DNA of 64,000 bases from positions 5,468 to 69,467 of the forward strand of contig CAIVRE010000015.1 in assembly GCA_903908245.1 (NCBI GenBank), given 5' to 3'. This DNA comes from Candidatus Omnitrophota bacterium. GTDB lineage: Bacteria > Omnitrophota > Gorgyraeia > Zapsychrales > Fredricksoniimonadaceae. Under the pieces are notes generated by a model. The model searched no databases, had not been told where the DNA came from, and worked only from the letters and a program-made list of their open reading frames with translations. Position numbers and translations under genes: made by a program. The first letter of the stretch is position 1; each line of letters opens with the position of its first letter. Of this stretch, positions 1 through 62,054 are shown one piece after another.

Positions 1-18
1 GTTATTCCTGCTCCTGCG

Positions 19-3000
19 ATGGCGCAGGCAGTGCAAACCATTCTTCCGTTCTCTTCATCTATCAGTGCGCCATCGTCCGCGTTCATTCCTGTTCATATTA
101 AAGCACTAAAAGTCAGGGCCGATGAACCGCTGGTGTTTGATTTTGTGATCGATAATGGTACGACCGGCCTTAAAGGAGCGGAGCTGAAAAATGAAACGCA
201 GAAGCTGGCCAAGTATTTTCTGGCGGCGGTGACCATTCCTGAAAAAGACCTTTGGGTCAACCTGTCTCCCTATGAAAATGACCGTATTATTCCCAATGAA
301 CTTGGTCTGACCGAAATGGGCCGTCAGATGTTGTCGCAGGACAGCGTGCTCAAGCAGGTGTCGGCTTCCATCATTAATCCGGAGACCGCTACCGGGAAAT
401 TGTTCTGGGACAAATTGTATGCCAAGGCCAGGGAAGTCCTGGGGACGGTTGAGATCCCCCTGGATTCGTTGCAGAAGATCTGGATCGTGCCTGCGCAAGC
501 CAAGGTGTATGAATTTGATAATACCGCCCTCCTAGGTGGATCGAAGCTGAAGGTCATGCTGGACCAGGATTATTACGCGCTGGGGCTTCAGGCGAAGTCG
601 GCGGATACGGATGTGGCGGATGCCGATGCAGCCAGGACCAGGGACCTGTCCTTGCAGGTGATGAGGGACGTGGTGATCCCGGCGGTGGAGAAAGAGGTTA
701 ATGAGGGGAAAGATTTTGCGCCATTGCGCCAGGTTTATGGGGCGATGATCTTTGCCACCTGGTACAAGAAGGCACTTAAGGAAACATTGCTGGCGCAGGT
801 TTATGCCGACAAGAAAAAGACGGCAGGCGTTGAGACGGAAGACCTGGATGCGCGCGAGCGGATCTATCAGGAATATGTGGAAGCGTTCAAGAAGGGCGCG
901 TTCAGTTTTATCCGCGAGGATGCGGATCCGGTATCCGGCGAGGTTATTCCCCGGAAGTATTTTTCAGGCGGGATCGACGGTACAGAAAATGCCCGTACGG
1001 TTGCCGAGGGGTTGGAGCATGTGCAGGGGCTGAAGGATGTTCCCTCTGCCTCGCAGGCGCCTTCCGCGCCCGATTCCAGCGAGACGGTCGCGACGGTCGC
1101 GCTGCAGCAGAAGGATGGTGTTTCGGGTGTTAAAGATTTTGAAGTGGCGACAGGGGTTTCGTATTTCAAAGGCGATATTAAAACAACACCCATTACGCGT
1201 CCTTTTCGGGCCAGCCGGCAGGATGATGTGAGCGATATAACCAAATTGAATGAGCAGCAGGAATTGACCGCGGAAAGGGCCGGGGCGGAATCGGTGGAGC
1301 GTGGTGAAGGCGCGTTCTTTGTTCTTGCGGCAGGGGCGGCTTCGCGCATGGCGGTCGTACTGGCTCCGGACGATGTCAAGCAATTGGCCGGCGGGGAGGA
1401 GATCCTGTCCAAGGCCGGTGTTCCGGTGGGAGTTATCGACGGGAAGACGGTCAATTATCTGGATGTTTTCGGGCATAATGTGGCCCGGTTGCTGGAGGGG
1501 ATCGACCGGGAAGCCCGGTCGCAGGGGGTCACATCCGCGGCAGACCGGAATATTGTTGGTGTTTTTACGAATGATGAATATCGTGCGGAACATGATCGTA
1601 TCCTGGCCAAAAGCGGGAATTACGGGCTTAAGGCGGGGCAATTGCGTCTTTTTCATCAGCCTCTTGGGCCGAAATATGTCGGGACTCCGGAGGATGTGAA
1701 AAAGCTGGAAGCCAAATTTGCTTCTCCGGAGGCGTTTGCGCGGGCCCTGGCCCTGGCGCAGGACGTTCAGGCAAAGATCGCCAGCGGGGACCGTGAGGCT
1801 GCCAAGAGCGTGGTGCTTGCGAGTGAAAGGGATCCTCAGGGTCACGGGGAGTTTTTTCATCAGCTGATCGTTTCGGGGGAATTCCTGTACCTTTTTAATC
1901 ATGGAAAGAAATGGATCGCGGTCAAGAACATTGATAATATCGCGGCCAAGTTTGACCGGGTATGGTTAAGGATCCTGGGGTTGTTTTTGAACGGGAAGCT
2001 TGATGCTCAGCCGGAAGTTTCTCTTCGTGCGCCCGGGCAGAAAGGCGGAAGCCTGATCGTTATGGAAGATAACGGTTCACATCAGCTGGTGGAAGATCCG
2101 TCGTTGAATGCGACCAAGGATGAGCAGGGAAAGGTCAAGGTAACTCCGACCCAGTCATTCTGGTTCAATGATGCGGTGGCGCTTTTTTCATTGAACTATA
2201 TTGTAAGTATTTATAAGAAGGACGGACAGACCGATGAGGATTTTATTGCCGAATTACGCGGGGCGGACCAGTTAAAGAGGGAAGAGATCGCGGATCGCGG
2301 CCGGCAGAAATTCCCCAAGCTGCTGGATCCCAAGCCCGCCAAGAAACAGGATGCGGTTGCGGTCAAGATCGAGACGAATATGTGGCAATCGACCGGGATC
2401 GTCCCGCAGAGCATCAGCGTTAAGGCTGTCGGGGTTCGCGGTGCCAGGAATTTCCCGATCGCGGAATATCCTGCAATGGCGCAGGAACAGAGGACGGCAG
2501 AGCTTGCGAAGCTTCGGTTCCTCGGCACAAAACAGTGGAGCCTTTCTGATGCCGAGGTCATGAAGGCCAGGGCCGATCTTGAAGCGGCGGTGGGCCGTCC
2601 TGTGACAGATGCAGAATTAAGTCTGACGCTGGAAACATACAGCGGGAATAAAATATTGACGGATGACCTGCTGGATTATATATGGAACCAGCCATTGGTC
2701 CGGCCGGGGGTTTTTAATGGTGTTGATGGCAAAGACCTTGTGGCCGAAGGGTCCAGTGCCGCGCAGGTCGTTGATTTTAATGACGCCAATATTCGCGCCC
2801 AGATCACCGAGAGCGTTGATCGGGGCAATGCGCGGATCGGTTTTGTGAAGCCCGGCGCCATGGAAAAGGCCGGGGCGGACTGGATCATGCAGGTGATCAC
2901 GGATGAGATCGCCAAGAGGGACCTTCCGTTAAGCGTTGTGGTCGGCCCGCGGTTTCAAATGACACGCGCGGAAGCCGAACAGTTCTATATCGGGCATAAA

Positions 3001-3528
3001 GGCCGCCGTAATCCCGCGGGTTTTGAATATGCGCCGGGCTTGTGGGATTCTGTGAGCAATAAAGAGGCCGGCTGGTTCTTGCTGCAGGCCGGGCCGCAGG
3101 GAATGCCGTCGGAACAGGAAATGAAAGACCTGAAGAATGCGGTGCGTGACCGGTACAGCAAGGAGAAGCTTGGTCTTTCCGGCGATGCGGTCTTAAAGCA
3201 AAGGGCGGAAACGGATAATGGCCCTCACTGGTCTGATCCTTTGGGGTCAGACACGAATGCGGCTAATGAGGACTGGAATAATTTGCAGGCAATGCTTGAT
3301 ACGCGTCCTGCGCTGCAAGTCGGGCAGCCCAATGATACGACGGGTGGTATCAATTTCAACGCGACATTGCTGGATATGACCGTTGAGCGCAGCGGCAGCG
3401 GCGTGAAGGTGAATATTGACCCGGTGTTAATCCAACGGATCAAGACCCGGGGCGTGGAGGGGTTTGCTCCGGTGATCATCAATATGATGCCGGTAACCGG
3501 CATGGGCCAGGCGTTGGGAGTGAAGTAG
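19..3528 (+). CDS. Large multidomain protein with a central UDP-glucose/UDP-sugar pyrophosphorylase (UDPGP family) nucleotidyltransferase domain. Reading frame is open to window position 1, so the true start may lie upstream
   Basis: 1169-aa ORF. Central region has a glycine-rich motif VLAAGAASRMAV resembling UGPase LNGGLGTSMG, and later NIDNIAAKFD and KGGSLIVMEDNG resembling UGPase NIDNL and KGGTLI motifs. N-terminal ~400 aa and C-terminal ~450 aa have no family recognised from sequence alone. No stop codon between nt 1 and the first ATG at 19. Confidence 0.6.
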   Translation: MAQAVQTILPFSSSISAPSSAFIPVHIKALKVRADEPLVFDFVIDNGTTGLKGAELKNETQKLAKYFLAAVTIPEKDLWVNLSPYENDRIIPNELGLTEMGRQMLSQDSVLKQVSASIINPETATGKLFWDKLYAKAREVLGTVEIPLDSLQKIWIVPAQAKVYEFDNTALLGGSKLKVMLDQDYYALGLQAKSADTDVADADAARTRDLSLQVMRDVVIPAVEKEVNEGKDFAPLRQVYGAMIFATWYKKALKETLLAQVYADKKKTAGVETEDLDARERIYQEYVEAFKKGAFSFIREDADPVSGEVIPRKYFSGGIDGTENARTVAEGLEHVQGLKDVPSASQAPSAPDSSETVATVALQQKDGVSGVKDFEVATGVSYFKGDIKTTPITRPFRASRQDDVSDITKLNEQQELTAERAGAESVERGEGAFFVLAAGAASRMAVVLAPDDVKQLAGGEEILSKAGVPVGVIDGKTVNYLDVFGHNVARLLEGIDREARSQGVTSAADRNIVGVFTNDEYRAEHDRILAKSGNYGLKAGQLRLFHQPLGPKYVGTPEDVKKLEAKFASPEAFARALALAQDVQAKIASGDREAAKSVVLASERDPQGHGEFFHQLIVSGEFLYLFNHGKKWIAVKNIDNIAAKFDRVWLRILGLFLNGKLDAQPEVSLRAPGQKGGSLIVMEDNGSHQLVEDPSLNATKDEQGKVKVTPTQSFWFNDAVALFSLNYIVSIYKKDGQTDEDFIAELRGADQLKREEIADRGRQKFPKLLDPKPAKKQDAVAVKIETNMWQSTGIVPQSISVKAVGVRGARNFPIAEYPAMAQEQRTAELAKLRFLGTKQWSLSDAEVMKARADLEAAVGRPVTDAELSLTLETYSGNKILTDDLLDYIWNQPLVRPGVFNGVDGKDLVAEGSSAAQVVDFNDANIRAQITESVDRGNARIGFVKPGAMEKAGADWIMQVITDEIAKRDLPLSVVVGPRFQMTRAEAEQFYIGHKGRRNPAGFEYAPGLWDSVSNKEAGWFLLQAGPQGMPSEQEMKDLKNAVRDRYSKEKLGLSGDAVLKQRAETDNGPHWSDPLGSDTNAANEDWNNLQAMLDTRPALQVGQPNDTTGGINFNATLLDMTVERSGSGVKVNIDPVLIQRIKTRGVEGFAPVIINMMPVTGMGQALGVK

Positions 3529-3556
3529 TTCATAAAGGGTTATGCGTGCTATTTGA

Positions 3557-3583
3557 GGGCGGCCGTTCGGGCCGCCCTTTTTA
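3557..3583. terminator. Bidirectional intrinsic terminator between convergent genes
   Basis: GC stem GGGCGGCC-gttc-GGGCCGCCC followed by TTTTT. Sits at the stop of the + gene and overlaps the stop (3581-3583) of the - gene. Confidence 0.6.
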
Positions 3584-5260
3584 TTTGGCGCGCAGAATCT
3601 GCAGGTTCCGGGTATATCGTTGGACATCTGCCGTGTCATTCTGCTGTTGGGCGATCCTGATGAGGAGGTTAAGGGTGAATTCCCGATCGTCGGCGTATTG
3701 AAAATACTGTTCCAGCACGCGACGGGCATTGGCGTAGTCTTTGGCGTTGAGATAGAGCTGGGCCAGGGATTTGTAGGAAAAGATGAAATTTTTTTGTACG
3801 GCAATGGCCTGTTCGAAATAGTGAATGGCGTCTTTATCCCGTTGGGTATCCCGGCATAAATTCCCCATGTTGTGATAGGCGACGGCATTGGTCGCGTCAA
3901 GCGCGATGGCTTTGTTGTAGGCGGATTCGGCGTCAGCCGTCCGGCCTTTTGCGGCGTATTCCATCCCCAGGTTATTAAGGACCCGGTAACTCGGGTTGTT
4001 GCGCGCGATCTGTTCGTAAAATCCGACGGGGTTCCCCCAGTCGGCATTGCGGGCGATCGTGCGTCCGGCCAGGGCGAGTATCCCGGTCATGCCCAGTGTT
4101 AGCAGCCATGTTCGTTGCCGTGGATAATGCTCAAAGAGGACAATGGCGCCCCAGCCGGCCGCCAGCCCGAGCCCGGCGATGGGGATATACAGGAAATGTT
4201 CAAAGAAAAGGCTGTTGATGATCAGCGGAATGTTCGAATAGGGAAAGAGCGTGACCAGGAACCAGCTGGCCCCGAAAGAAACGATCGGCGCGGTATTGCG
4301 GCATTTCCAGACAAGGGTTCCGGCGCCCGTCAGCAGAGCGGCTCCAAGGGTGATCATCGGGGTCAGCCGCAGATCGGCCATGGCAAAGGGGCGGTCGAAC
4401 TGAAGGTGTGCGGGCCAGAGAAGGACGCCGATATATTCAGGAACGGCTTTGAGGAAGGTGAGGGTGCGGACCAGGATGTTCGTTTGAAAGTCGGGGCGTT
4501 CGGGATAGTAATCCTTCGCACTTCCGAAATATAAGAGGGTGGCCCGCAGGAGGGCATAAATAATGGCGATGGCCAGGAACGGGAGCAGGGCGAGAAGCAT
4601 TTTTCGGATACGGGGCCAGATCCCTGGCATGGTTCGGCAGTATGCCCCGTCGCAAAGCATCAGCAGCGGCAGAAAGATGATCCCGATCTCTTTGGTCATG
4701 AGGGCCAGCGCAAAACAGGCAAGTGCGCCGAGATAACAGGATCTCTTGCCGGTGATACGGTAACGCACGAATGTATTGAGCCCCAGAAGGGTGCACAGGA
4801 AGACAAGGCTGTCCCCCTGGCTGCAGGCATAGGCCACGGTCTCGGTCTGTACGGGGTGGATCAGAAAGAGGAGGGCGGCAATGAACGCGGCGGCCGGTCG
4901 GTGGAACAGGCGGCGGAATAAAAGAAAAAGCAGTGCCGCGTTGATCGAGTGCAGGAGGATGCCTATGGCATGCCAGCCCGGCGCCCAGTCGGCCCACAGG
5001 TGCCATTGCGCGGCAAAGAATATTTGCACCAGCGGCCGCCAGTAGTTGCTCATCAGGCTTGTTCCTGCCAGCAGGTTGTCGGTAAAGAAGTGGGGCCAGT
5101 ATTTCCAGTCCTGGATAAAGAGGTTCCTGAGGATGAAGTCATCATCGTCCCAGAACATTTCATTGGGCAGGCAGTTGGCGTAGACGACCATGCCGAGCAG
5201 CAGGAGCAGCAGGATGGCGGTCGATGGTTTTTTGATCAGGGATCCGATTTTTTCAAGCAT
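3581..5260 (-). CDS. Membrane GT-C type glycosyltransferase-like protein (DUF1736/PMT_2/TMTC-like multi-pass N-terminus) with C-terminal TPR repeats
   Basis: 559 aa. About 10 predicted TM segments in the N-terminal 400 aa, then TPR-like repeats (YNKAIALDATNAVAYHNMGNLC..., AIHYFEQAIAVQKNF...). Architecture matches bacterial TMTC/PMT_2-like TPR proteins. Confidence 0.55.
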   Translation of the reverse strand: MLEKIGSLIKKPSTAILLLLLLGMVVYANCLPNEMFWDDDDFILRNLFIQDWKYWPHFFTDNLLAGTSLMSNYWRPLVQIFFAAQWHLWADWAPGWHAIGILLHSINAALLFLLFRRLFHRPAAAFIAALLFLIHPVQTETVAYACSQGDSLVFLCTLLGLNTFVRYRITGKRSCYLGALACFALALMTKEIGIIFLPLLMLCDGAYCRTMPGIWPRIRKMLLALLPFLAIAIIYALLRATLLYFGSAKDYYPERPDFQTNILVRTLTFLKAVPEYIGVLLWPAHLQFDRPFAMADLRLTPMITLGAALLTGAGTLVWKCRNTAPIVSFGASWFLVTLFPYSNIPLIINSLFFEHFLYIPIAGLGLAAGWGAIVLFEHYPRQRTWLLTLGMTGILALAGRTIARNADWGNPVGFYEQIARNNPSYRVLNNLGMEYAAKGRTADAESAYNKAIALDATNAVAYHNMGNLCRDTQRDKDAIHYFEQAIAVQKNFIFSYKSLAQLYLNAKDYANARRVLEQYFQYADDREFTLNLLIRIAQQQNDTADVQRYTRNLQILRAK

Positions 5261-5532: not shown

Positions 5533-6081
5533 ATGCGATTTGCCAAACTTCTTTTATTGTTCGTTTTGCTGATGCCGGTGTCGGGCTGTGACCGCATTTA
5601 CGCTTTTTTGCACAAGCCGGGCGGGGAAGAGCGCCAGATCCTCGGGCCTTTCGAGTTCAATGTCTACAATGCGAGAGTGGAAGAAGTGCAGAAGGTCCTC
5701 AAGGGGTTCGGTTATAATATTGGCCGTCCGGACGGAAAATTCGGCGCCTCCACCCGTGAGGCCGTGGCGAGGTTCCAGGCGGATGAGGGCATCAAGGTCA
5801 CGCGTTTTGTCGACAAGGATACCTGGGCCGCGATGCAGGGATATTTGCAGGGGCCGTTGTTCAGGAAAGGCCTGCTCGATGGCCGCGCGGTGCAGAAGGC
5901 GCTGGCGAAGGCCGGGTTCGGGGCGGGCAAGGTTGACGGCCAGATCGGGCGCCGCAGCCGCGAGGCGCTCAAGGCGTTCCAGGCTTCCCAGGGGCTTGAT
6001 GCGGACGGGCAGATCGGGCTTCGGACCATAAAAGCCCTGTTGAAGTATTCCGCTTTACCGGCCGCAAAACCCGGGATGTGA
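5533..6081 (+). CDS. Lipoprotein with two peptidoglycan-binding (PG_binding_1-like) repeats
   Basis: Signal peptide MRFAKLLLLFVLLMPVSGC (lipobox). Repeated motif GxxDGKFGxxTxxAVxxFQ occurs twice. Confidence 0.6.
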   Translation: MRFAKLLLLFVLLMPVSGCDRIYAFLHKPGGEERQILGPFEFNVYNARVEEVQKVLKGFGYNIGRPDGKFGASTREAVARFQADEGIKVTRFVDKDTWAAMQGYLQGPLFRKGLLDGRAVQKALAKAGFGAGKVDGQIGRRSREALKAFQASQGLDADGQIGLRTIKALLKYSALPAAKPGM

Positions 6082-13528: not shown

Positions 13529-16189
13529 ATGAATGCTGGCGGTTATCCTTCCAAACAGGGGCTTTATGACCCTCAATTTGAACATGATGCGTGCGGTGTC
13601 GGCTTTGTGGCGGATATCAAAGGCCGCAAGTCCCATGAGATCGTCCGTCAGGGCATCAGTATCCTTGAGAACCTGGCGCATCGCGGCGCGTGCGGCTGCG
13701 ACCCTTTAACAGGGGACGGCGCGGGTATTTTACTGCAGATGCCGGACCAGTTCCTGCGCAAGGCCGCGAAAGCCGAAGGTTTCGTGCTTCCGGCGCCGGG
13801 GGATTATGCCTGCGGGATGGTCTTTCTTCCCGTTGAGCCTCAGTCGCGCAATATCATCGAGGAGTGGGTCGAGCAGATCATTCATGAGGAAGGCCAGCAG
13901 TTCCTGGGTTGGCGCGCCATCCCCCACGATGACAGGCATGTCGGCCGGGTCGCCCATTCGGTACAGCCGGAATTGAGGCAGATCTTTATCGGCCGCGGCG
14001 CGGATACGAAACCCGAGGAATTCGAGCGTAAATTATATGTCCTGCGCAAGCGTTGCTGGACGAAAGTCCACACGTCCACGGTGCATGACCGCAGTTATTT
14101 TTATATTTGCAGCCTGTCGTCAAAGACGATCGTTTATAAAGGCCAGTTCATGGCCGAACAGCTGGGGCCGTTCTTTTCCGACCTTTCCGACCCCGATATG
14201 ATCTCGGCGCTCGCGCTGGTCCATTCGCGTTACAGCACGAATACTTTTCCGACCTGGTCCTTGGCGCATCCTTACCGCCTGCTGGCGCATAACGGCGAGA
14301 TCAACACCCTGCGCGGCAACCTGAACTGGATGCGTGCGCGCGAAGCGCAAATGGCCAATCAGTTGTTCGGCAAGGACGTGAAGAAGATCTATCCGATCGT
14401 CGGCCCATTCGGGAGCGATTCGGCATCGTTCGATAACGCGCTGGAGCTCCTGGTCATGGCCGGACGTTCCTTGCCCCACGCGGTCCTGATGATGGTCCCT
14501 GAAGCCTGGGTGGGCGATGAGGCGATCAGCGCGGAAAAGCGCGCGTTCTATGAATATCATGCCCTGTTGATGGAGCCATGGGACGGCCCGGCGTGCATCG
14601 CGTTCACGGATGGCAGTTATATCGGGGCGGTCCTGGACCGCAACGGGCTTCGTCCGTCGAGATATACGGTCACCAAAGACGGCCTGGTCGTAATGGCGTC
14701 CGAGACGGGGGTCCTTCCGATCGCGCCGGAACGGGTGGCGAAGAAAGGCCGCTTACAGCCCGGGAAGATGTTCTTGATCGATACGGTCGGGGGCCGGATC
14801 ATCGATGACAAGGAGATCAAGGAGACATATGCCCGGCGCAAGCCTTACGGGCAGTGGCTCAAGGATAATATTGTCGATCTGAAGGATTTGCCGGAGCCCA
14901 GGAAGGTTTCGGGGCTGAATGAAAAAACACTCATGGAGCGCCAGCGTGCGTTCGGCTATACGCAGGAAGACCTCAAGATCGTCCTGAAAGCCATGGTCGA
15001 GAACGGGGAAGAGGCGACAGGATCCATGGGGGCGGATAACCCGGTCGCGGTGCTGTCCGGCCGTTCACAGCTCTTCTTCAATTATTTTAAACAGCTTTTT
15101 GCCCAGGTCACCAATCCGCCGGTTGATCCCATCCGTGAAGAGGTCGTGATGGCGGAAAATGTCTATCTTGGCTCCGAAGGCAATATCCTGGCGGAAACGC
15201 CCGATCATGCCCGCCGTTTGCGGCTGGCTCGGCCGATTCTGACCAACAGGGAGCTGGAACAGATCGCGCATGTGAACATGTCCGGATTGAAAAGCGCAAC
15301 GTTCCCGATCGTTTTCCGCAAGGCCGATGGCCCCGGCGGGCTGGCCAAGGCGATGGACGAGCTGTTCGTCCGCGTGGACAAGGCGATCGCGGAGGGCGTT
15401 AATATCCTGGTCCTTTCCGACCGCGAGATGGGCGCGAAGAGCGTGGCCATCCCGTCGTTGCTGGCGTGCGCGGGACTGCACCATCATTTGATCCGCAAGG
15501 GAACGCGCACCAAAGTGTCCCTTGTCCTTGAAACGGGCGAGGCGCGTGAAATGCACCATTTCGCGGTCCTGATCGGTTACGGCGCGAACGCGGTCAATCC
15601 GTACCTTGCGCTGGAAACGATCGAAAGCGAAGTGAACAAGGGGAATTTCAAAGGGCCTGATCTGGACTGGCATCACGCGGAGAAGAATTATATCAAGGCC
15701 ACGCGCAAGGGCTTGTTCAAGATCATTTCCAAGATGGGGATCTCGACCATCCAGTCGTATTGCGGCGCGCAGATCTTCGAGGCTGTCGGGCTTGGCAAGG
15801 AGCTGATCGAAAAGTATTTTACCGCCACGCCGTCGCGGATCGGCGGGATCGAGATCGGGACCGTTGCCGAGGAATCCCTGCTCCGTCACGCGCAGGGGTA
15901 TCCTGATGCCGGGCCGGAAGAGCACCTGCTCGATGAAGGCGGCTGGTACCACTGGCGCAAAGACGGGGAATACCATCAGATCAACCCCGAGGTCATTGCG
16001 ACGCTGCAGCAGGCGGTGCGTGCGAACGATTATCAGCTGTTCAAGAAATTCAGCAAGACCGTCAATGAGGCCGACCGGACCATTCCCAATATCCGCGGCC
16101 TGATGCAGTTCAAAAAAGGCGCGGCTATTCCCTTATCCGAGGTTGAACCGGCCTCCGAGATCGTGAAGCGTTTTGCGACCGGGCGATGA
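13529..16189 (+). CDS. gltB: Glutamate synthase large subunit GltB, N-terminal part (Ntn-amidotransferase and central domains). Interrupted by an apparent 1-nt frameshift
   Basis: Starts [30 protein letters not shown] (Cys1 nucleophile). Ends ...VKRFATGR*, exactly where intact GltB reads FATGAMSYGS. Confidence 0.8.
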
Positions 16190-18060
16190 GCTACGGTTCC
16201 ATTTCCAAGGAAGCGCATGAGACGATGGCCATTGCCATGAACCGCCTGGGCGGTTTTTCCAACACCGGTGAAGGCGGGGAAGACCCCTTGCGGTTTAAAA
16301 AGGATGCTAACGGTGATGTCCGCCGCAGCCGCATCAAACAGGTGGCGCAGGGGCGGTTCGGTGTCAACATTGAATACCTGGTCAATTCTGACCAGATGCA
16401 GATCAAGATGGCGCAGGGGGCCAAGCCCGGCGAGGGCGGCCAGCTTCCCGGCCACAAGGTCACGCAGGAGATCGCAAAGACCCGCGGCACAACGGCAGGC
16501 GTCCAGCTGATCTCGCCGCCGCCGCATCATGATATTTATTCGATCGAGGACCTGGCCCAGCTGATCCATGACCTGAAGAACGCCAATCCGCAGGCGGATG
16601 TGAGCGTGAAGCTTGTGTCCGAGATCGGCGTGGGGACGGTCGCGGCCGGCGTGTCCAAGGGCAAGTCCGACCATGTTCTGATCTCGGGTTATGACGGCGG
16701 TACGGGGGCGTCCCCGCAGACGTCTATCAAGCATGCCGGCCTTCCGATGGAGCTCGGCCTTGCCGAGACCCAGCAGGTCCTGGTCATGAACGATCTGCGC
16801 GGGCGTATCCGCGTGCAGGCGGACGGCCAGCTCAAGACGGGGCGGGACGTGGTCATTACGGCGATGCTTGGCGCGGATGAGTTCGGGTTTTCCACTATTG
16901 TACTGGTTACGCTCGGGTGCGTCATGTTGCGCAAATGCCATCTGGATGCCTGTTCGGTCGGCATTGCGACCCAGGATCCGCAGCTGCGCGCGAATTTTGC
17001 CGGCAAGCCGGAGTATGTGGTGAGTTTCTTCACGTTCCTGGCCGAGGAGATCCGCGAGTTGATGGCTGAACTGGGTTTCCGGAAGTTCGAGGACATGGTC
17101 GGCCGCGTGGATATGCTGGAAGCCAAGGATGTCATCAGCCACTGGAAATTGAAGGGGATCGACCTTGCGAATATCCTGCATCGGGTGGATGTTCCCAAAG
17201 AGGTCCCTATTCATCATTGTTTGAAGCAGGAGCATGGCCTGGAGAAGGCGCTGGATAATGAGCTTATCGTAAAATGCCGGGACGCTGTCGAAAACAAAAC
17301 GCCGGTGCGCTTTTCGTCCGCGGTCAGGAATGTCAATCGTACTGTCGGGACGATGCTCAGCTCCACGATCGCCCGCCGTTACGGGATGGCCGGACTTCCG
17401 GAAGGGACCATTCACATCGATTTTACGGGTTCGGGCGGGCAGAGTTTCGGGGCGTTCCTTTCCAGGGGTGTCACCTTTGAACTGGAAGGCGATGCCAACG
17501 ATTATGTCGGCAAGGGGTTGTCCGGCGGCCGGATCATTGTGTATCCGTCGAAAAAGGCTTCGCTGGTGGCGGAAGACAACATCCTTATCGGCAATGTGGT
17601 CCTTTACGGGGCGATCGCCGGCGAGGCGTATTTTCGCGGGATCGCCGGCGAACGTTTTTGCGTGCGTAATTCGGGCGGGCACGCCGTTGTGGAGGGAGTG
17701 GGGGACCACGGTTGTGAATATATGACGGGCGGACGGGTCGCAGTCCTTGGAGGCACGGGGCGTAATTTTGCGGCGGGGATGTCCGGCGGCATTGCGTATG
17801 TCCTGGATGCGGACGGGACGTTCGCCAGCCGCTGCAATATGGGGATGGTGGACCTCTTTCCCGTTTTGGACGCTTCCGATGTTGCGGAGCTTAGGGGCAT
17901 GATCGAACGCCATCAAAAGCATACGCAAAGTGTTGTTGCCGGGAACATCCTTGAGCATTGGGATATAACGCTGCCGCGGTTCGTGAAGGTTTATCCTCGC
18001 GATTTCCGCAAGGCGGTAGAAAAAGCGCAACAGGCCGCAGTGCCGGCCGGCAAGGGATAA
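16186..18060 (+). CDS. gltB: Glutamate synthase large subunit GltB, C-terminal part (FMN-binding and GXGXG domains). Continuation after the frameshift
   Basis: Begins [23 protein letters not shown]..., the conserved FMN-domain sequence, in the -1 frame relative to the upstream part. The two parts total ~1510 aa, matching full-length GltB. Confidence 0.8.
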
Positions 18061-42086: not shown

Positions 42087-43916
42087 ATGTGCGGGATCGT
42101 CGGTTATATCGGGAATAAGGATGCCCTTCCCTTCCTTATTGAGGGTTTGAAAAATCTTGAATACCGCGGTTACGATTCGAGCGGCGTCGGGTTGATCACG
42201 CCCGATGGCGGCCTTCAGGTCCGCAAGGAAAAAGGCAAGATCCGCTGCCTGGAAGACCTGCTGGCAAAGGATCCGGTCAAAAAAGCCCATATAGGCATTG
42301 CGCATACCCGCTGGGCCACGCACGGCGCGCCATGCCGGAAGAATTCCCATCCGCATACCAATTCCGGCGGGACCATTGCGGTGGTCCATAACGGGATCAT
42401 CGAGAATTACCAGTCGCTTAAGGCAGGACTGATCGCCAAGGGCGTCAGGTTCCTTTCCGATACCGATACCGAAGTTATCGGCCATTTGATCAACGAATAT
42501 TTTGAAGGCGACCTGGTCAAGGCTGTGCAGCGGGCTATTAGGGACCTGACAGGGGCTTTTGCGATCGGTGTTATTTCGTCGGATGACCCTTCCACCCTGG
42601 TTGCGGCGCGCGTGGGTTCGCCGCTGATCATCGGCGTGGGAGAGGGCGAGTATTTTATTGCGTCGGATGTTCCGGCCATTATTCGCCATACCCGCCGGGT
42701 CATTTACCTGAAAGACGGAGAGATGGCGGTCCTGCGCTCCGATGGCGTTGAGGTTATGACGTTCGCAGGGAAAAAAATGCCGTTCACCGTGGACAAGGTT
42801 ACTTTTCAGATGGATGCCGCCCAGAAGCAGGGCTATCCCCATTTTATGCTCAAGGAAATACATGAACAGCCCGAGGTGCTGAGGCAAATGGTTGCTTTGC
42901 GGCTCAAGGGCGGGCATGTGACGCTCGATGGCCTTGGGATCTCCGATCGCAAGCTCAAGTCTTTCACGCGCATTAAAGTGGTGGCATGCGGGACGGCGTA
43001 TCATGCCGGCCTGGTCGGGCGGTATATTATTGAAGAGCTGGCCAGGGTGCCGGTGGAGGTGGATGTTTCGAGTGAATTTCGTTATCGATCGCCCATCGTG
43101 GACAAGAGAACACTTTTGATCGCGGTGAGCCAGTCGGGTGAGACGGCCGATACGCTGGCTGCGGTGCGCGAGGCGCGCGCGCGGGGCGCTTCGGTCGTTT
43201 CCATATGCAATGTGATCGGTTCCTCGCTGGCGCGTGAGTCGGCGGGGGTCCTCTATACGCACGCCGGCCCGGAAATAGGCGTGGCGTCCACCAAAGCCTA
43301 TACGGCCCAGCTGATGATGTTCTATCTTCTGGCCATCAAGCTGGCGGAAGTTCACGGCGGAGTGGATGTCAAGGAGCGCGTGAAGTTCGCCAAAGACCTT
43401 GCGGCGGTCCCGGGGCTGATCAGGGAAATATTGAAGAACGCGAAGCATATTGCCAGGGTCGCCAGGAAACATTCGCATTACGGCTGTTTTCTGTATCTGG
43501 GGCGCAATATCAATTATCCGTCCGCCCTGGAAGGCGCGCTCAAGCTCAAGGAGATCTCGTATATTCCGGCGGAAGGTTACGCGGCGGGTGAAATGAAGCA
43601 TGGGCCTATTGCCTTGATCGACGAGTACCGGGCGGTCGTCTGTATCGCGCCGCAATCGGATATTTACGAGAAGATGATCTCGAACATCCAGGAGATCCTC
43701 TCGCGCAAGGGCAAGGTCATTGCCATTGCGACGGAAGGCGACGCCTTGATCCAGCAGCATGCCACCAAGGTCATTTATATCCCCAGGACGCATAAACTGT
43801 TGACGCCGCTTTTGGCGATCATCCCTTTGCAGCTTCTGGCGTATTACATTGCGGTCAATCGCGGATGCGATGTGGACCAGCCGCGCAACCTGGCAAAGTC
43901 CGTGACCGTGGAATAA
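42087..43916 (+). CDS. glmS: Glutamine--fructose-6-phosphate aminotransferase
   Basis: MCGIVGYIGNKDALPFLIEGLKNLEYRGYDSSG... canonical GlmS. C-terminal ...SVTVE. Confidence 0.9.
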   Translation: MCGIVGYIGNKDALPFLIEGLKNLEYRGYDSSGVGLITPDGGLQVRKEKGKIRCLEDLLAKDPVKKAHIGIAHTRWATHGAPCRKNSHPHTNSGGTIAVVHNGIIENYQSLKAGLIAKGVRFLSDTDTEVIGHLINEYFEGDLVKAVQRAIRDLTGAFAIGVISSDDPSTLVAARVGSPLIIGVGEGEYFIASDVPAIIRHTRRVIYLKDGEMAVLRSDGVEVMTFAGKKMPFTVDKVTFQMDAAQKQGYPHFMLKEIHEQPEVLRQMVALRLKGGHVTLDGLGISDRKLKSFTRIKVVACGTAYHAGLVGRYIIEELARVPVEVDVSSEFRYRSPIVDKRTLLIAVSQSGETADTLAAVREARARGASVVSICNVIGSSLARESAGVLYTHAGPEIGVASTKAYTAQLMMFYLLAIKLAEVHGGVDVKERVKFAKDLAAVPGLIREILKNAKHIARVARKHSHYGCFLYLGRNINYPSALEGALKLKEISYIPAEGYAAGEMKHGPIALIDEYRAVVCIAPQSDIYEKMISNIQEILSRKGKVIAIATEGDALIQQHATKVIYIPRTHKLLTPLLAIIPLQLLAYYIAVNRGCDVDQPRNLAKSVTVE

Positions 43917-51833: not shown

Positions 51834-51907
51834 GGGCGGTTAGCTCAGTTGGTTAGAGCAGTTGATTTACATTCAACAGGCCACAGGTTCGAGCCCTGTA
51901 CTGCCCA
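51834..51907 (+). tRNA. tRNA-Val (anticodon TAC), no encoded CCA
   Basis: GGGCGGTTAGCTCAGTTGGTTAGAGCAGTTGATTTACATTCAACAGGCCACAGGTTCGAGCCCTGTACTGCCCA. Anticodon loop TTTACAT. Confidence 0.85.
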
Positions 51908-51995
51908 TATTCTTGTTTTTGACCGGAGAGTTAAGCGGGTTTAAAAAAATTCTTTACAATTGCGGGGTGGATAAGTAAACTAGCGAAGATTTTTT

Positions 51996-52073
51996 GGGGT
52001 GGTGGTGTAGTTTGGTTAACATATCAGCTTGTCACGCTGGAGATCGCGGGTTCAAGTCCCGTCCACCCCGCCA
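51996..52073 (+). tRNA. tRNA-Asp (anticodon GTC), CCA encoded
   Basis: Acceptor GGGGTGG/CCACCCC, anticodon loop TTGTCAC, T-arm GCGGG-TTCAAGT-CCCGT. Confidence 0.8.
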
Positions 52074-52075
52074 TT

Positions 52076-52114
52076 AAACAAGAAAGCCCGCTTTTTCAGC
52101 GGGCTTTCTTGTTT
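52076..52114 (+). terminator. Long hairpin terminator after the tRNA pair
   Basis: AAACAAGAAAGCCCGC-tttttca-GCGGGCTTTCTTGTTT, a 16-bp perfect stem. Confidence 0.5.
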
Positions 52115-52304
52115 AATGGCCGACCCGAAGGGAGCGAAGCGACCGGAGGGCGCCAAGTCTCCTGCCGAGCCAGAGCTTCCTCATATTTTGGGTGTGCAAA
52201 AGTGAAAAGAATTGATAATATATTTGTAAAGAGGCAACAGGTTTTTAACGATCGGCCCAGTCATCAGGCCAGAGATCCGGGTATTTTTGTTTTAAGGAAT
52301 AACC

Positions 52305-53597
52305 ATGAAGAATGAAACTGAAAAAGCACTCGTTAAAGCGGTAAAACTTTTGCAAGAACAGCTATTAGCAAAAGATATTGAAAGCCAGAAGGCCGAGCAA
52401 AAGATCCAGAAAGCTCGCGAATATGCCGAGAGTATCGTAGAGACAGTGCGCGTGCCTTTAATAGTGTTGAGTCACAAGCTCAGGGTGATCTCTGCCAATC
52501 AATCGTTCTATCGGGTTTTTAAAGTTTCTCCTCAGGAAACTGTAGGAGAATTTATTTATGATCTGGGAAATCGGCAGTGGAATATTCCCGGGCTGCGGCA
52601 TCTTTTGGAGAAGATCCTTCCTGATAATAAATTCTTCGAGGACTATGAGATCAGTCATGATTTCAAGGCCATCGGGCCCAGGGACATGCTTCTTAATGCC
52701 CGCCGCCTTGATAGCGTGCAGATGATCCTTCTGAGTATTGAGGATATTACGGATCGCAAGAAGAGCGAAAATAAATTGAGAAATTCAGAGATCAAATATA
52801 AGGCGTTATTTATGGGTGCGCCCGATGGGATGCTCGCGGTGAGAACACAAACGAAGCAGATCATTTACGCTAATCCGGCTGCCTGCAGGATGTTCGGATA
52901 CGCGGAAGAAGAGTTTGTGCAAAAAAGAGTTATGGATCTTCATCCAAAAAAGTTTATGAGTTATGTTTTGGCCTGTTTCAAGGCAGAGAAGAAGGACGTT
53001 AATCGTGTATTAACAAACCTTGCATGCCTGCGCCAGGACGGCAGCGTGTTTTATGTCGACGTCAGCTGGATCAATATCATTTTAGATGGCGAGGATTGCA
53101 TCTTGGGCATTTTTAATGATATCACCCAGCGTATGCAGGCGCAGGAGGCATTAAGAAGGTCTGAAAAAGAGCTAAAAGACGACAAGGTGCTTTTGGTACA
53201 AAAGAATTTGGCTTTAAAGGAATTGCTGGAACATATGGAGAGGGAAAAAGACAGGATGAGAGAAGATGTTGCGATCAACGTGGAAGAATTCATAGAACCG
53301 ATCCTGAAGAAACTGGCGATCAAGGGCGTTTCGCCCAAATATCTTGAATTGCTCGAGCAGCATTTGAAGGAACTGACATTGTCTTTTGGCCGCAAGATAA
53401 CCAACAGACGCGAGCGATTAACATCTCGCGAGATCGAGATCAGCAGCATGATCAAAGGCAACCTTACCAGTAAGGATATTGCCGGGCTTTTGAATGTTTC
53501 TTGCCAGACAATAGAAAAACACCGCAAAAATATCCGAAAGAAAATGGGCCTGTCGAACAAAAAGGCCAACCTTGCCTCATATCTTCAGAAGATCTGA
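52305..53597 (+). CDS. PAS-PAS-LuxR family transcriptional regulator
   Basis: Two PAS-like regions and C-terminal HTH LTSREIEISSMIKGNLTSKDIAGLLNVSCQTIEKHRKNIRKKMGL (LuxR/GerE type). Confidence 0.7.
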   Translation: MKNETEKALVKAVKLLQEQLLAKDIESQKAEQKIQKAREYAESIVETVRVPLIVLSHKLRVISANQSFYRVFKVSPQETVGEFIYDLGNRQWNIPGLRHLLEKILPDNKFFEDYEISHDFKAIGPRDMLLNARRLDSVQMILLSIEDITDRKKSENKLRNSEIKYKALFMGAPDGMLAVRTQTKQIIYANPAACRMFGYAEEEFVQKRVMDLHPKKFMSYVLACFKAEKKDVNRVLTNLACLRQDGSVFYVDVSWINIILDGEDCILGIFNDITQRMQAQEALRRSEKELKDDKVLLVQKNLALKELLEHMEREKDRMREDVAINVEEFIEPILKKLAIKGVSPKYLELLEQHLKELTLSFGRKITNRRERLTSREIEISSMIKGNLTSKDIAGLLNVSCQTIEKHRKNIRKKMGLSNKKANLASYLQKI

Positions 53598-53634
53598 TCT
53601 TTTCGACCAGCCCTTTATAAGCTCCCCCTGAAGG

Positions 53635-53657
53635 AATGGGTATATTCTATACCCATT
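53635..53657. promoter_or_regulatory. Perfect 10-bp palindrome AATGGGTATA-ttc-TATACCCATT plus a downstream half-site, a candidate operator
   Basis: Seen directly. Additional TACCCATT half-site 4 nt downstream. Confidence 0.35.
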
Positions 53658-53739
53658 TGATACCCATTAATGCCCTATAGCATCGGTTACAATGCAGGGA
53701 TACAATTTGGACATATAGGAAGTGAGTGTCTGATATCGC

Positions 53740-54039
53740 ATGTGTGTATTCAGGGAAAGGAATATTTTCTTTATGAATCCATCCTGTGAAAAAGAAGCTG
53801 AAATAGGAACAATAGAAATGACCCGGCGCACAGGCATATCGTCCGAGCGATTGCGTTATTGGGAGAGATTTGGCATTGTTAAACCAGAATATGCCCAGTG
53901 CGGGATAAGAAAATTCAGGTGTTATTCTGCGGAAGATATCGACAGGGCTATTTTTGTGAAGAGGCTCATCGATAAGGAGGGGTATTCCCTCGCTGGCGCC
54001 CAAAGGAAGTTGGAAAAAGAGATGAAAGTTGGCCCCTGA
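53740..54039 (+). CDS. MerR-family HTH transcriptional regulator (small). True start possibly downstream, near 53818
   Basis: MTRRTGISSERLRYWERFGIVKP matches the MerR HTH. Confidence 0.55.
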   Translation: MCVFRERNIFFMNPSCEKEAEIGTIEMTRRTGISSERLRYWERFGIVKPEYAQCGIRKFRCYSAEDIDRAIFVKRLIDKEGYSLAGAQRKLEKEMKVGP

Positions 54040-54058
54040 AAGAATTAGAGAAGGCGTG

Positions 54059-55886
<1,828 letters not shown>

Positions 55887-55909
<23 letters not shown>

Positions 55910-56333
55910 GATACTTTTAGTCGAGGATAATCCGTCTGACGTTGAGCTTACACTGCGGGCGTTACAGAAGAAGAACCTTGATAATAAAATCCATGTGGTC
56001 ACTGATGGAGCCCAGGCGCTTGATTTTGTATTTTGTTCCGGAGCCTATCTCAACAGGAACATTAAAAATCCGCCCAAGGTTATTCTTCTCGACATTAAGC
56101 TCCCCAAGGTGGATGGCAAAGAGGTGCTCAGGCGCATCAAGGCGGATGAAAGGACGAAGATCATCCCCGTCGTGATCATGACTTCTTCTCAGGAGGAAAG
56201 TGATCTGATCGATAGTTATAATCTCGGCGCGAACAGCTATATCGTGAAGCCGATCGATTTTGAAAAGTTCTCTGAAACGATCAGGGCGCTTGGCATGTAT
56301 TGGGTTTTTATCAACAAGCCTCCGATCGTTTAA
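55887..56333 (+). CDS. Single-domain response regulator (CheY-like REC)
   Basis: ILLVEDNPSDVELT...VILLDIKLPKVDG...SYIVKP. RBS AAGGAGGG. Confidence 0.75.
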
Positions 56334-56400
56334 AAGAAGGCATCAAAGGGGCAAAGTATCCGAGTTGACAGGCGGGATCTTTGGGAGAGAAGGAGGTTTT

Positions 56401-57309
56401 ATGGATAAAGAGATACGGATCTTGATCATAGAAGATTCTGAAGCGGACGTGGAGCTTCTCGCAAGACAGCTTGATCAATGCGGCTTGGCCTACACCTTGA
56501 AATGGGTGAAAACAAAAGAGGCATTTCAAAAACTGATCGGCGACTATATTCCGGACATGATCTTTAGTGATTTTAATATGCCAGGTTTTGGCGCTTCCGA
56601 GGCGCTGGAGATCGCAAAAGAAGTTTTCCCGGGAATTCCGTTTGCCGTCATTTCCGGCACCATTGCTGAGGATCGGGCGGTTGAGATGATGAAGGCAGGC
56701 GCGGTGGACTATATTATGAAAGACCGGCTCTACAAGTTAGCAGAGGTCATAAAGCGTGCTGTCCGGGAAAGAGAGGTTCGTGTCGATCTCAAGAAGGCGG
56801 AGGCGGAGATCCGCCAGTCGGCTGAACAGTGGAAGATGACGTTTGATGCCATGAGTGAAATGATCTTTGTTCAGGATAAGGATATGAATATTGTGAGGAT
56901 AAACAAGGCCTGTCTTAATGCGTTAAAAATGGATTCCAGGGACGTGATCGGCAAGAAATGTTTCGAGATCGTGCATCACCTGGATCATCCCTGGCTGTCC
57001 TGTCCTTTTAAGAAGAGCGAACTGGATAAAGAATCCCATACAGAAGAGGTCATTGATCCTCGGTTGGGGATCATCTTACAGGTCACTGTTGCTCCCATTC
57101 TTGGGATCGATGGAGAATGGCTGGGCGCGGTCCATGTCGCCAGGGATATTACACAGGAAAAGAAGGTCACAAAGCAAACGGAAGCGCATTTGCATGAGTT
57201 GGAGATTTATTACAAAGCGAGCATGGGCCGGGAAGAGCGTATTCTGGCATTGAAAGAAGAGATCGACCAGTTGAAAGAGGATCTGGCCAAATTCAAAAAG
57301 AGTGTCTGA
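56401..57309 (+). CDS. Response regulator REC-PAS with conserved C-terminal coiled-coil tail
   Basis: REC (ILIIEDSEADVELL...) plus PAS. Strong RBS GAGAAGGAGG. Confidence 0.7.
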   Translation: MDKEIRILIIEDSEADVELLARQLDQCGLAYTLKWVKTKEAFQKLIGDYIPDMIFSDFNMPGFGASEALEIAKEVFPGIPFAVISGTIAEDRAVEMMKAGAVDYIMKDRLYKLAEVIKRAVREREVRVDLKKAEAEIRQSAEQWKMTFDAMSEMIFVQDKDMNIVRINKACLNALKMDSRDVIGKKCFEIVHHLDHPWLSCPFKKSELDKESHTEEVIDPRLGIILQVTVAPILGIDGEWLGAVHVARDITQEKKVTKQTEAHLHELEIYYKASMGREERILALKEEIDQLKEDLAKFKKSV

Positions 57310-57338
57310 ATGCCGGGCAAATTCAGGAAGAAGGTCTT

Positions 57339-59141: not shown

Positions 59142-59178
59142 TTTTACAGATCGGGATCGCTAACGCAGGTGTTTTGTC

Positions 59179-61671: not shown

Positions 61672-62054
61672 TGGCTAAGATATTGGTCGTTGATGATGAG
61701 GAAGGGATCGTCGAGGTGTTCGTCGAATTCTTGGCCCAGGAGGGTTTTGAGGTCATTTCGGCCTCCGGGGGCGGGGAGGCCATTGGGCTTTTAAAGGCAG
61801 GCGTGGCCATGGATCTAATGATCCTTGATATGAAGATGCCCAGGATCACAGGGTTAGATGTGCTGAAGGTTAAGAAGGACTTGCAAGATATCCGGCCGGT
61901 CATCATTTTAACGGGATCCATGGGGCAGGAGAAAATTTATAAAGACTTGGAAGGATTGGGATTCCGCTGGGAAGATGTTATTTATAAACCCGTTGATCTG
62001 CTTTTGCTTTTAAATGAAGTCAAAAAGAAACTTGGGATGAACAGGCATTTATGA
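61671..62054 (+). CDS. Single-domain response regulator (REC)
   Basis: [14 protein letters not shown]...[13 protein letters not shown]... Confidence 0.75.

Follow-up and report, generated by a model that had tools for sequence, protein, structure and literature searches.

Omnitrophota are ultra-small, host-dependent bacteria (PMC10066038), and micrographs of a cultured predatory member have been reported to show open cytoplasmic contact with its prey (PMC13153191). The phylum encodes giant proteins with signal peptides or transmembrane (TM) helices that carry phosphoglucomutase (PGM), NUDIX and kinase domains, and the preprints describing them debate their topology (10.64898/2026.06.07.730766; 10.1101/2023.11.21.568195). 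In Chlamydia, housekeeping glycogen enzymes and PGM have gained secretion signals and do their work outside the bacterial cell (PMC4829429, PMC9251005). Here we describe a gene at the beginning of a 64,000-nucleotide stretch of DNA from a Candidatus Omnitrophota bacterium (assembly GCA_903908245.1, contig CAIVRE010000015.1, positions 5,468 to 69,467 of the forward strand; this whole stretch is called the window below). Judged by its sequence, the gene product is a clear member of an unnamed Omnitrophota family with the layout signal peptide, N-terminal module (N-module), cargo and C-terminal tail (C-tail). The cargo of this member combines a divergent core of the UDPGP family with a domain resembling nucleoside diphosphate kinase (NDK). 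The part that stands out is the frame made of signal peptide, N-module and C-tail, which is common to thousands of Omnitrophota proteins. No description of this frame was found in literature searches, and the giant-protein preprints do not mention it (10.64898/2026.06.07.730766; 10.1101/2023.11.21.568195).

Gene extent and signal peptide

The open reading frame (19..3528, plus strand; stop codon at 3526-3528) remains open up to window base 1, which had led the original prediction to propose that the protein is longer than the window shows and that its true start should be sought upstream. Both expectations were borne out. The exact product of a neighboring gene was looked up in public assemblies, which gave contigs with the same locus. 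One of them, the metagenome contig L085, matches the window at 100% identity across 15,260 nt and places the true start 78 nt upstream of the window, giving a product of 1,201 aa. The 26 residues absent from the window complete a Sec signal peptide, MFSEKRGSFLFRKAAACLTVIFFINSVIPAPAMA/Q, with the layout MFSEKRGSFLFRK-AAACLTVIFFINSVIPAP-AMA/Q (the slash marks the putative cleavage site). The end of this peptide, with the last 9 residues VIPAPAMAQ, is encoded at 1..27 of the window (plus strand), as indicated by L085 and by the N-termini of homologs. A Shine-Dalgarno-like GGGG run lies 8 nt upstream of the true ATG, and the ATG at nt 19 falls inside the signal peptide, so that it is not the start codon. 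No exact match to the first 51 nt of the window was found in the GTDB representative genomes. Residues are numbered from window base 1 throughout; full-length numbering is obtained by adding 26.

The same arrangement is found across the family. A net-positive n-region is present in 192/192 homologs that start with Met, a hydrophobic core in 191 of the 192, and a small-x-small-Q motif ahead of the N-module in 165. These N-termini are Sec-type signal peptides, and in the L085 copy of our gene such a peptide directly precedes the N-module. No further TM-like segment was detected in the query or in the 7 homologs scanned. Export by the Tat pathway was considered and rejected as a general route: only a few signal peptides contain an RR pair (P0001, P0015).

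The family frame

The protein search covered 5.8 billion proteins and returned more than 2,700 significant matches, among which every match named by its source comes from Omnitrophota (or Omnitrophica). In a BLAST map made from 120 homologs, aa 1 to ~325 are common to every match (~45-75% identity, beginning at homolog residue ~27-30), aa 1115-1174 are common to most, and the middles are unrelated from one protein to the next.

The N-module (aa 10-335, nt 28..1005, plus strand) is delimited by the BLAST map, by its invariant residues, by phmmer and by an AlphaFold2 (AF2) model. It is a conserved mixed α/β domain with the invariant stretch DLWVNLSPYE.DRIIP and the ending RKYFSGG, 45-75% identical to more than 200 homologs and carrying the WVNLSPYE block. 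Residues W85, N87, S89, E92, R95, D114, K118, K159, D190, E232, N234, R243, Q244 and K256 are invariant in the alignment, and this set of polar and aromatic positions suggests a specific binding or catalytic surface. The AF2 model is confident (predicted local distance difference test, pLDDT, 81.2; predicted TM-score 0.80). Foldseek gave no significant fold match for it in PDB or in the viral database BFVD, and no Pfam or NCBIfam model matched either the N-module or the C-tail. ClyA-type α-pore-forming toxins (NheA/SmhA/MakA) were rejected as relatives of the N-module (E 0.07-3, TM-score ≤0.13, rmsd >20 Å); together with the V-ATPase stalk matches they are helix-rich noise (TM-score ≤0.15, probability ≤0.2), and the N-module has no hydrophobic window of the kind that ClyA-type toxins need for their β-tongue or helical hairpin.

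A phmmer search with the N-module against 1.84 billion 50%-identity representatives gave at least 7,801 representatives at E ≤1e-3, of which 6,103 reach E ≤1e-30. Identity of the module among these cluster representatives is about 50%, and their middles are unrelated. Among the matches listed, the proteins span 376 to 4,969 aa; the module starts within the first ~77 residues (mostly 35-60) in 150/150 of them and is matched in one stretch in all but four.

The C-tail (aa 1112-1175, nt 3334..3525, plus strand) is supported by BLAST, by a tail hidden Markov model (HMM) and by the AF2 model. Its layout is GGINFN, a β-hairpin, a helix, GFAPVIINMMPV and LG, with the end 10 residues before the stop. 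The family consensus, GGI(D/N)(L/F)N...PVIINI.P, covers ~60 aa, and the query has PVIINMMPV. The tail was aligned in 94/120 homologs by BLAST, and the HMM matches 52 of 59 complete N-module genes (88%), 0-53 residues from the C-terminus. AF2 models it as hairpin, helix and extended segment (pLDDT 61-85). It contains no TM-like window and has polar residues at the end. Type IX secretion system (T9SS) C-terminal domains (CTD), PEP-CTERM/LPXTG-type sorting signals, two-partner secretion (TPS) domains, autotransporter β-domains, surface-layer homology (SLH) domains and dockerins gave no Pfam or NCBIfam match at E ≤1. As a separate observation, 5/52 complete family members (loci L004-L082) have two tail HMM matches, pointing to either an internally duplicated tail or two fused family genes.

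Spread and cargo were followed in the GTDB species representatives, which were scanned with the N-module alignment (at least 592 stretches, at least 581 of them confirmed). Locus statistics refer to the best 79 loci of these stretches, chosen by the N-module alone and irrespective of cargo. All 79 are from Omnitrophota metagenome-assembled genomes, several per genome; some carry the automatic label 'Planctomycetales' and one 'Elusimicrobia'. Two or more family genes lie within 6 kb in 16/79 loci. The two largest clusters of neighboring genes were tentatively read as antisense shadows of the N-module, and the third-largest consists of generic PAS kinases. The middles of the proteins matched in the protein search contain Pfam domains as diverse as UDPGP, NDK, phosphoglucomutase, phosphoglycerate kinase (PGK), adenylate kinase, NUDIX, PGI, class II aldolase with GAPDH, aldose epimerase, methyltransferases, GNAT, GT1, PP2C, and HEAT and ankyrin repeats. 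In 32 complete genes from the 79 loci, which are not biased toward UDPGP because the loci were chosen irrespective of cargo, the recognizable cargo consists of HEAT, phosphoribosyltransferase, PGI (E 5.6e-199), PGM, PPDK_N, NUDIX, PP2C, ankyrin and TPR; most of the 32 have no Pfam match. UDPGP cargo was found in 1/79 loci only (L005), that is, in ~1% of the family; the pyrophosphorylase therefore rides in the frame as a rare, interchangeable passenger and does not organize the protein.

These results change the picture drawn by the original prediction, in which a protein built round a pyrophosphorylase carried flanks without recognizable matches, perhaps carbohydrate-binding or regulatory domains whose structures should be predicted. 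The core is an interchangeable cargo of the frame. The absence of matches for the flanks holds for Pfam and NCBIfam and fails in sequence space, where both have thousands of relatives. A view of them as idiosyncratic carbohydrate-binding or regulatory extensions is not supported: the N-terminal flank consists of a signal peptide and the shared module, and the C-terminal flank of an NDK-like domain and the shared tail. The architecture is indeed atypical and not of the GalU type, and no curated family in Pfam or NCBIfam spans the whole protein. A real and unusual protein had thus been found, and the reason for its unusualness misjudged.

The UDPGP-family core

The N-module is followed by a Ser/Pro/Ala-rich linker, EGLEHVQGLKDVPSASQAPSAPDSSETVATVALQQKDGVSGV (aa 336-376, nt 1006..1128, plus strand), recognized by its composition and by its position, after N-module homology stops (~aa 325-335) and before the stand-alone enzymes begin to align (aa 377); pLDDT in the AF2 model falls at aa 330-340. 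The core itself (aa 377-905, nt 1129..2715, plus strand) is defined by Pfam, by PDB profile comparison and by stand-alone homologs of 460-530 aa with 44-57% identity, which set its bounds at ~530 aa and not at the ~280 aa first proposed. Three of these homologs lack a signal peptide (P0124, P0126, P0128) and two have their own (P0130, P0131).

Pfam UDPGP (PF01704) matches the whole protein with 41.8 bits (gathering cutoff 22, E 7.6e-11) and aa 421-800 alone with 44.4 bits. The aligned span, aa 609-723, corresponds to profile positions 161-275 of 413. NCBIfam gave no match for the protein. As a single sequence, the protein aligns over the PF01704 block with PDB UDP-glucose pyrophosphorylases (UGPases) from plant, Leishmania, yeast and human (E 8e-4). 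A profile including the stand-alone homologs, compared with PDB, reached 1.3e-9 for UGPases, 4.5e-4 for UAP and 0.03 for USP. Each of the three motifs quoted in the original prediction was located: VLAAGAASRMAV spans aa 441-452 (nt 1321-1356), NIDNIAAKFD spans aa 643-652 (nt 1927-1956), and KGGSLIVMEDNG spans aa 681-692 (nt 2041-2076). The motifs PQGHGEF, KNIDNIAA and KGGSLIV align with PPGHGDV, NSDNLGA and KGGTLI of 1Z90/5WEG. Given this alignment to solved UGPases, the profile E-value of 1.3e-9 and the Pfam score, the UDPGP hallmarks are real and not spurious. Within the core, LAAGAASRM is encoded at nt 1324-1350, SKAGVPVG at 1408-1431, PQGHGEF at 1834-1854, NIDN at 1927-1938 and KGGSL at 2041-2055. 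In the homologs the loop reads AG(A/G)(S/A)(S/T)R(M/Q) and is followed, after an insertion of ~20 aa, by an invariant S-K-A; in the profile comparison with PDB the loop region gives no significant alignment to UGPases and weak ones to UAP and USP.

We therefore classify the core as a divergent new member of a known enzyme family, as threshold and motifs indicate, with the predicted activity of a sugar-1-phosphate nucleotidylyltransferase and its specificity left unassigned. Some sources label relatives 'UTP--glucose-1-phosphate uridylyltransferase'. The eukaryote-type UGPase/USP/UAP enzymes (PF01704; Arabidopsis 1Z90/2ICY, Leishmania UGP 2OEF) share with it the central block of GHG, N-x-D-N and KGG(S/T)L, the L-x-x-G-x-x-(S/T)-R-M type of loop, the conserved Lys in S-K-A and a similar core of ~500-530 aa. 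Unlike in these enzymes, about a quarter of the profile aligns, the loop is degenerate, ~20 aa are inserted between the loop and the Lys motif, and the core has a signal peptide and N-module ahead of it and an NDK-like domain behind it.

The same core occurs fused to a canonical NDK (P0001, P0011, P0027), to a four-domain phosphoglucomutase (P0005, P0009, P0010) and to PGK (P0006), which argues for a chemistry of hexose-phosphate, UDP-hexose and NTP exchange. On contig L083, a 520-aa copy of the enzyme without signal peptide lies between uvrB and coaX, and a framed copy of 1,568 aa is found ~900 bp downstream of it. Since unframed and framed copies coexist on this contig, the framed protein is an extra copy. 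Such an arrangement would fit a duplication after which one copy was inserted into the frame, so that the enzyme could work elsewhere.

The NDK-like domain

The domain between core and tail (aa 942-1084, nt 2824..3252, plus strand) was recognized by hhalign and by AF2 with Foldseek. Alignment to a canonical NDK profile, composed of an E. coli Ndk sequence entered by hand and of five segments of family members around Pfam NDK matches, gave a probability of 96% (E 3.6e-9, 113 columns). FVKPG, QFYIGH and NGPHWSD (the last at nt 3217-3237) align with IIKPN, GFYAEH and NGTHGSD of NDK, the Lys, Tyr and phospho-His motifs. In the AF2 model of aa 905-1175 (pLDDT 70.6), ~45 of the top 50 PDB matches by Foldseek are NDKs, with a best probability of 0.98 and TM-scores ≤0.53 on target length. 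Compared with NDK (PF00334), the domain is thus alike in profile match, in fold search and in the K(P), FY and N-x-x-H-x-S-D positions, including that of the catalytic His, and differs in that the Kpn-loop region is replaced, its Arg/Thr not being recognizable, and in that Pfam gives no match at E ≤1. Because the Pfam threshold is missed, membership in NDK is not demonstrable, and we call the domain NDK-like on the strength of these alignments. A homology search with this segment alone returned no matches, a result limited by the word index of the search. The BLAST match of residues 973-1170 to the canonical NDK of P0027 was not used as independent evidence, as the shared C-tail adds to its score. 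A canonical NDK is also present in the same-family paralogs P0001, P0015 and P0027; in P0001 and P0015 the NDK-like domain follows the canonical one and therefore may be a specialized or regulatory derivative.

Proposed function and alternatives

The reading that we favor, with a probability of about 0.5, is that of a relocated, exported sugar-nucleotide/NTP-exchange enzyme carried in a phylum-specific localization frame. The protein would be exported by Sec and its signal peptide cleaved. As N-module and C-tail are near-constant and the middle varies freely, the two would together most likely form a common localization, docking or assembly device, which would hold the protein in the envelope or at the zone of contact with host or prey. 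There the cargo would reversibly convert NTP and sugar-1-phosphate into NDP-sugar and pyrophosphate, and the NDK-like domain would pass γ-phosphate from NTP to NDP pools and back, replenishing or depleting UTP. Such an enzyme might scavenge and convert nucleotide sugars and sugar phosphates of the partner cell or, alternatively, supply extracytoplasmic glycosylation. Because a relative's genome keeps a copy without signal peptide next to the framed one, the framed duplicate would work elsewhere, apart from housekeeping UDP-sugar synthesis.

Several observations weigh against this proposal. The UDPGP match takes in only ~115 of the 413 profile positions, LAAGAASRM is a degenerate Gly-rich loop (compared with the pattern L-x-G-G-x-G-T-x-M/L-G it has AGAAS instead of GGxGT, with Ala for Gly at two positions), and the lysine of KGG varies in the stand-alone homologs. 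For the NDK-like domain, Pfam NDK has no match at E ≤1 in the whole protein or in aa 801-1175, the single Foldseek E-values are weak (0.003-0.3), and the profile used with hhalign includes the hand-entered E. coli sequence. The N-module lacks a structural or sequence analogue in PDB or BFVD that would point to its ligand, and the 79 loci contain no recurrent neighbor gene hinting at a dedicated transporter or receptor. Export, signal peptide cleavage, enzyme activity, localization and the function of the frame are all predicted from sequence. A further weak point is where NTP-dependent enzymes would obtain their substrates, as a normal periplasm offers no obvious supply. The host dependence of Omnitrophota, the contact with prey and the precedent in Chlamydiae make NTP-dependent enzymes outside the cytoplasm less implausible.

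An alternative is a membrane-tethered cytoplasmic metabolon, in which the N-terminal hydrophobic segment would serve as an uncleaved anchor: the cargo is overwhelmingly of cytoplasmic, NTP-dependent type, and ~46% of long Omnitrophota proteins have been assigned a TM-only, cytoplasm-facing topology (10.64898/2026.06.07.730766). This arrangement is nevertheless unlikely. A positive n-region in 192/192 homologs and small-x-small/Q in 165/192, after a core of 12-18 residues, point to a cleaved Sec signal and an N-in/C-out orientation, no second TM segment would return the body of the protein to the inside, and the relative retains a cytoplasmic copy without signal peptide beside the framed one. 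The protein could also be directed to an intracellular membrane-bounded compartment, with the frame as a retention device. Omnitrophota are part of the Planctomycetes-Verrucomicrobia-Chlamydiae (PVC) superphylum, in which signal peptides direct proteins of some relatives to the anammoxosome, and such a compartment would reconcile signal peptides with NTP-dependent cargo. The literature searched gives no sign of one in Omnitrophota, however, and the sequence offers nothing to tell this targeting from ordinary export; we regard it as the least probable of the explanations considered here.

The degenerate motifs that count against catalysis (AGAAS in the Gly-loop, an NDK-like domain under the Pfam threshold) would instead suit a family of surface coat proteins or adhesins, whose enzyme folds bind nucleotides, sugars or glycans of the partner and whose frame polymerizes or anchors an extracellular layer. 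Many paralogs have HEAT, ankyrin or TPR repeats or no recognizable domain, V. archaeovorus has been suggested to have an extracellular 'coat' (PMC10066038), and an N-module and C-tail on every member would be fitting for head-to-tail assembly. On the other hand, GHG, NxDN and KGG are kept, as are the NDK His, Lys, Tyr, Asn and Ser positions; the very strong Pfam scores of some cargos, such as PGI with E 5.6e-199, argue for intact enzymes; and the co-fusions of PGM with UDPGP and of NDK with UDPGP are metabolically sensible. We hold a coat or adhesin to be as improbable as the tethered metabolon. Disfavored more strongly is the model implicit in the original prediction, an ordinary housekeeping UDP-glucose pyrophosphorylase that substitutes for GalU and has acquired regulatory domains. 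The PF01704 match, the source name 'UTP--glucose-1-phosphate uridylyltransferase' on some relatives and the location of the gene among housekeeping genes would agree with it, but the signal peptide, the flanks common to thousands of proteins with unrelated cargo, and the existence of a ~520-aa version without signal peptide that coexists with a framed copy would not. It appears hardly more credible than the intracellular compartment.

The reading of a relocated, exported exchange enzyme suggests more generally that Omnitrophota, being tiny and predatory or symbiotic, relocate ordinary cytoplasmic enzymes to the outside of the cell. As a tentative extension, doubtful at present and still ahead of the rival explanations above, the frame could be an undescribed phylum-wide system of export and display, or of head-to-tail assembly, that moves blocks of central metabolism outside, to the metabolite pool of the partner cell. 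Such blocks may include glycolysis, nucleotide and nucleotide-sugar interconversion and phosphotransfer, with the UDPGP and NDK-like protein as one station.

Neighborhood and other features of the window

The gene is followed, 27 nt past the stop, by an intrinsic terminator-like hairpin (3555..3579, plus strand) with a 10 bp stem including 8 GC pairs and then a T-run. The convergent neighbor (3581..5260, minus strand) encodes, according to Pfam, a PMT_2 (GT-C fold) membrane glycosyltransferase with C-terminal TPRs. An ortholog with 41% identity lies in the same convergent position beside the UDPGP-cargo gene of L005 (L005 9036-10850), the only other such gene among the 79 loci, and a weaker relative is encoded ~2 kb away from P0003 (L083 19462-21018). 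The association may be functional, linking the gene to extracytoplasmic glycosylation, or may be no more than conserved synteny.

No paralogs of any of the modules were found elsewhere in the 64-kb window. Upstream of the window and next to the gene, on the same strand as the gene (the minus strand in the locus), lies a tandem framed paralog (L085 15480-18491; also L086 9978-12989) with signal peptide, N-module, a methyltransferase-like middle and a GGVDFN tail. It is broken by an in-frame TAA at codon 518 that is identical in two independent assemblies, so that it could be a pseudogene or give two separate products. Its N-terminal part shares 56% identity with the gene that precedes the closest homolog (L003 111-3563), and the tandem pair is therefore conserved. 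Farther upstream on the same strand (L085 18614-20726; public 284,957-bp contig) are genes for a ROK-family sugar kinase extended at its C-terminus, for a Metallophos/Ppx-GppA/HD protein and for a CHAD protein. These genes, of polyphosphate and sugar-phosphorylation flavor, might feed hexose phosphates.

Downstream in the window, a small protein with two PG_binding_1 peptidoglycan-binding repeats (5533-6081, plus strand) is encoded between the GT-C gene and a GAF-ANTAR regulator. The latter precedes a stretch of glutamine-dependent nitrogen genes (7513-30150) with type III glutamine synthetase, glutamate synthase (GOGAT), NAD synthase, CarAB, PurF, PyrG and a class I GATase; GlmS follows at 42087-43916. 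Two overlapping open reading frames (13529-16189 and 16186-18060) together encode the large subunit of glutamate synthase, with an apparent 1-nt deletion in ACCGGGCGATGAGC (16170-16195), within what we take to be a conserved GOGAT motif. The public contig gives a single product of 1,510 aa (886 + 624), and the split probably comes from either a sequencing error in a homopolymer or a true frameshift. Right after a tRNA-Val/tRNA-Asp pair, GC drops from about 0.55 to 0.45-0.49 (51834-62000); the genes in this stretch encode PAS, HisKA/HATPase, receiver, LuxR and HD-domain signaling proteins, and it may be a horizontally acquired or fast-evolving signaling island.

Comparison with known systems

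If the exported-enzyme reading is true, metabolic reconstructions of Omnitrophota that count every PGI, PGK, PGM, NDK and UGPase as cytoplasmic could mislead, and the predatory or epibiotic lifestyle would involve a large set of small exported metabolic enzymes besides the giant surface proteins. With at least 7,801 clusters sharing a confidently modeled domain that has no known fold relative, and with cargo that can be assayed, the exploitation of partner cells becomes testable. N-module and C-tail, for which there is as yet no curated domain model, are candidates for curated families.

In the Omnitrophota giant proteins ('Archaeovorins' and the multi-enzyme metabolic class), the same phylum, a signal peptide and shared HEAT, PPDK_N, NUDIX, PGM, TPR and kinase domains recall the framed proteins. 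Framed proteins are, in contrast, 0.4-5 kaa long against 10-147 kaa for the giants and lack internal TM helices. The Archaeovorin type has tens of thousands of residues and many TM helices, whereas the protein described here has 1,201 aa and a TM segment in the signal peptide only. The glycogen enzymes and PGM that Chlamydia secretes into the inclusion lumen by the type III secretion system (T3SS) offer another likeness: in this PVC member, housekeeping enzymes of sugar phosphates and linked to UDP-glucose are exported and work on host-derived metabolites. Export has been shown experimentally there and is predicted here, and the signals differ, a T3SS signal in Chlamydia and a Sec signal with a frame in Omnitrophota, as do the numbers, with a handful of enzymes on the one side and framed paralogs in the thousands on the other.

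In its logic, the frame resembles TpsA/CdiA TPS proteins, T9SS CTD cargo, SLH enzymes, dockerin enzymes and polymorphic toxins, all of which combine a signal peptide and conserved end modules with an exchangeable middle and occur as many paralogs per genome, with tandem duplicates. The frame is unrelated to all of these in sequence and fold, and no dedicated transporter gene lies next to it. In contrast to these secreted systems, both ends are conserved at once, and the cargo consists of central-metabolic enzymes, not of toxins, carbohydrate-active enzymes or adhesins.

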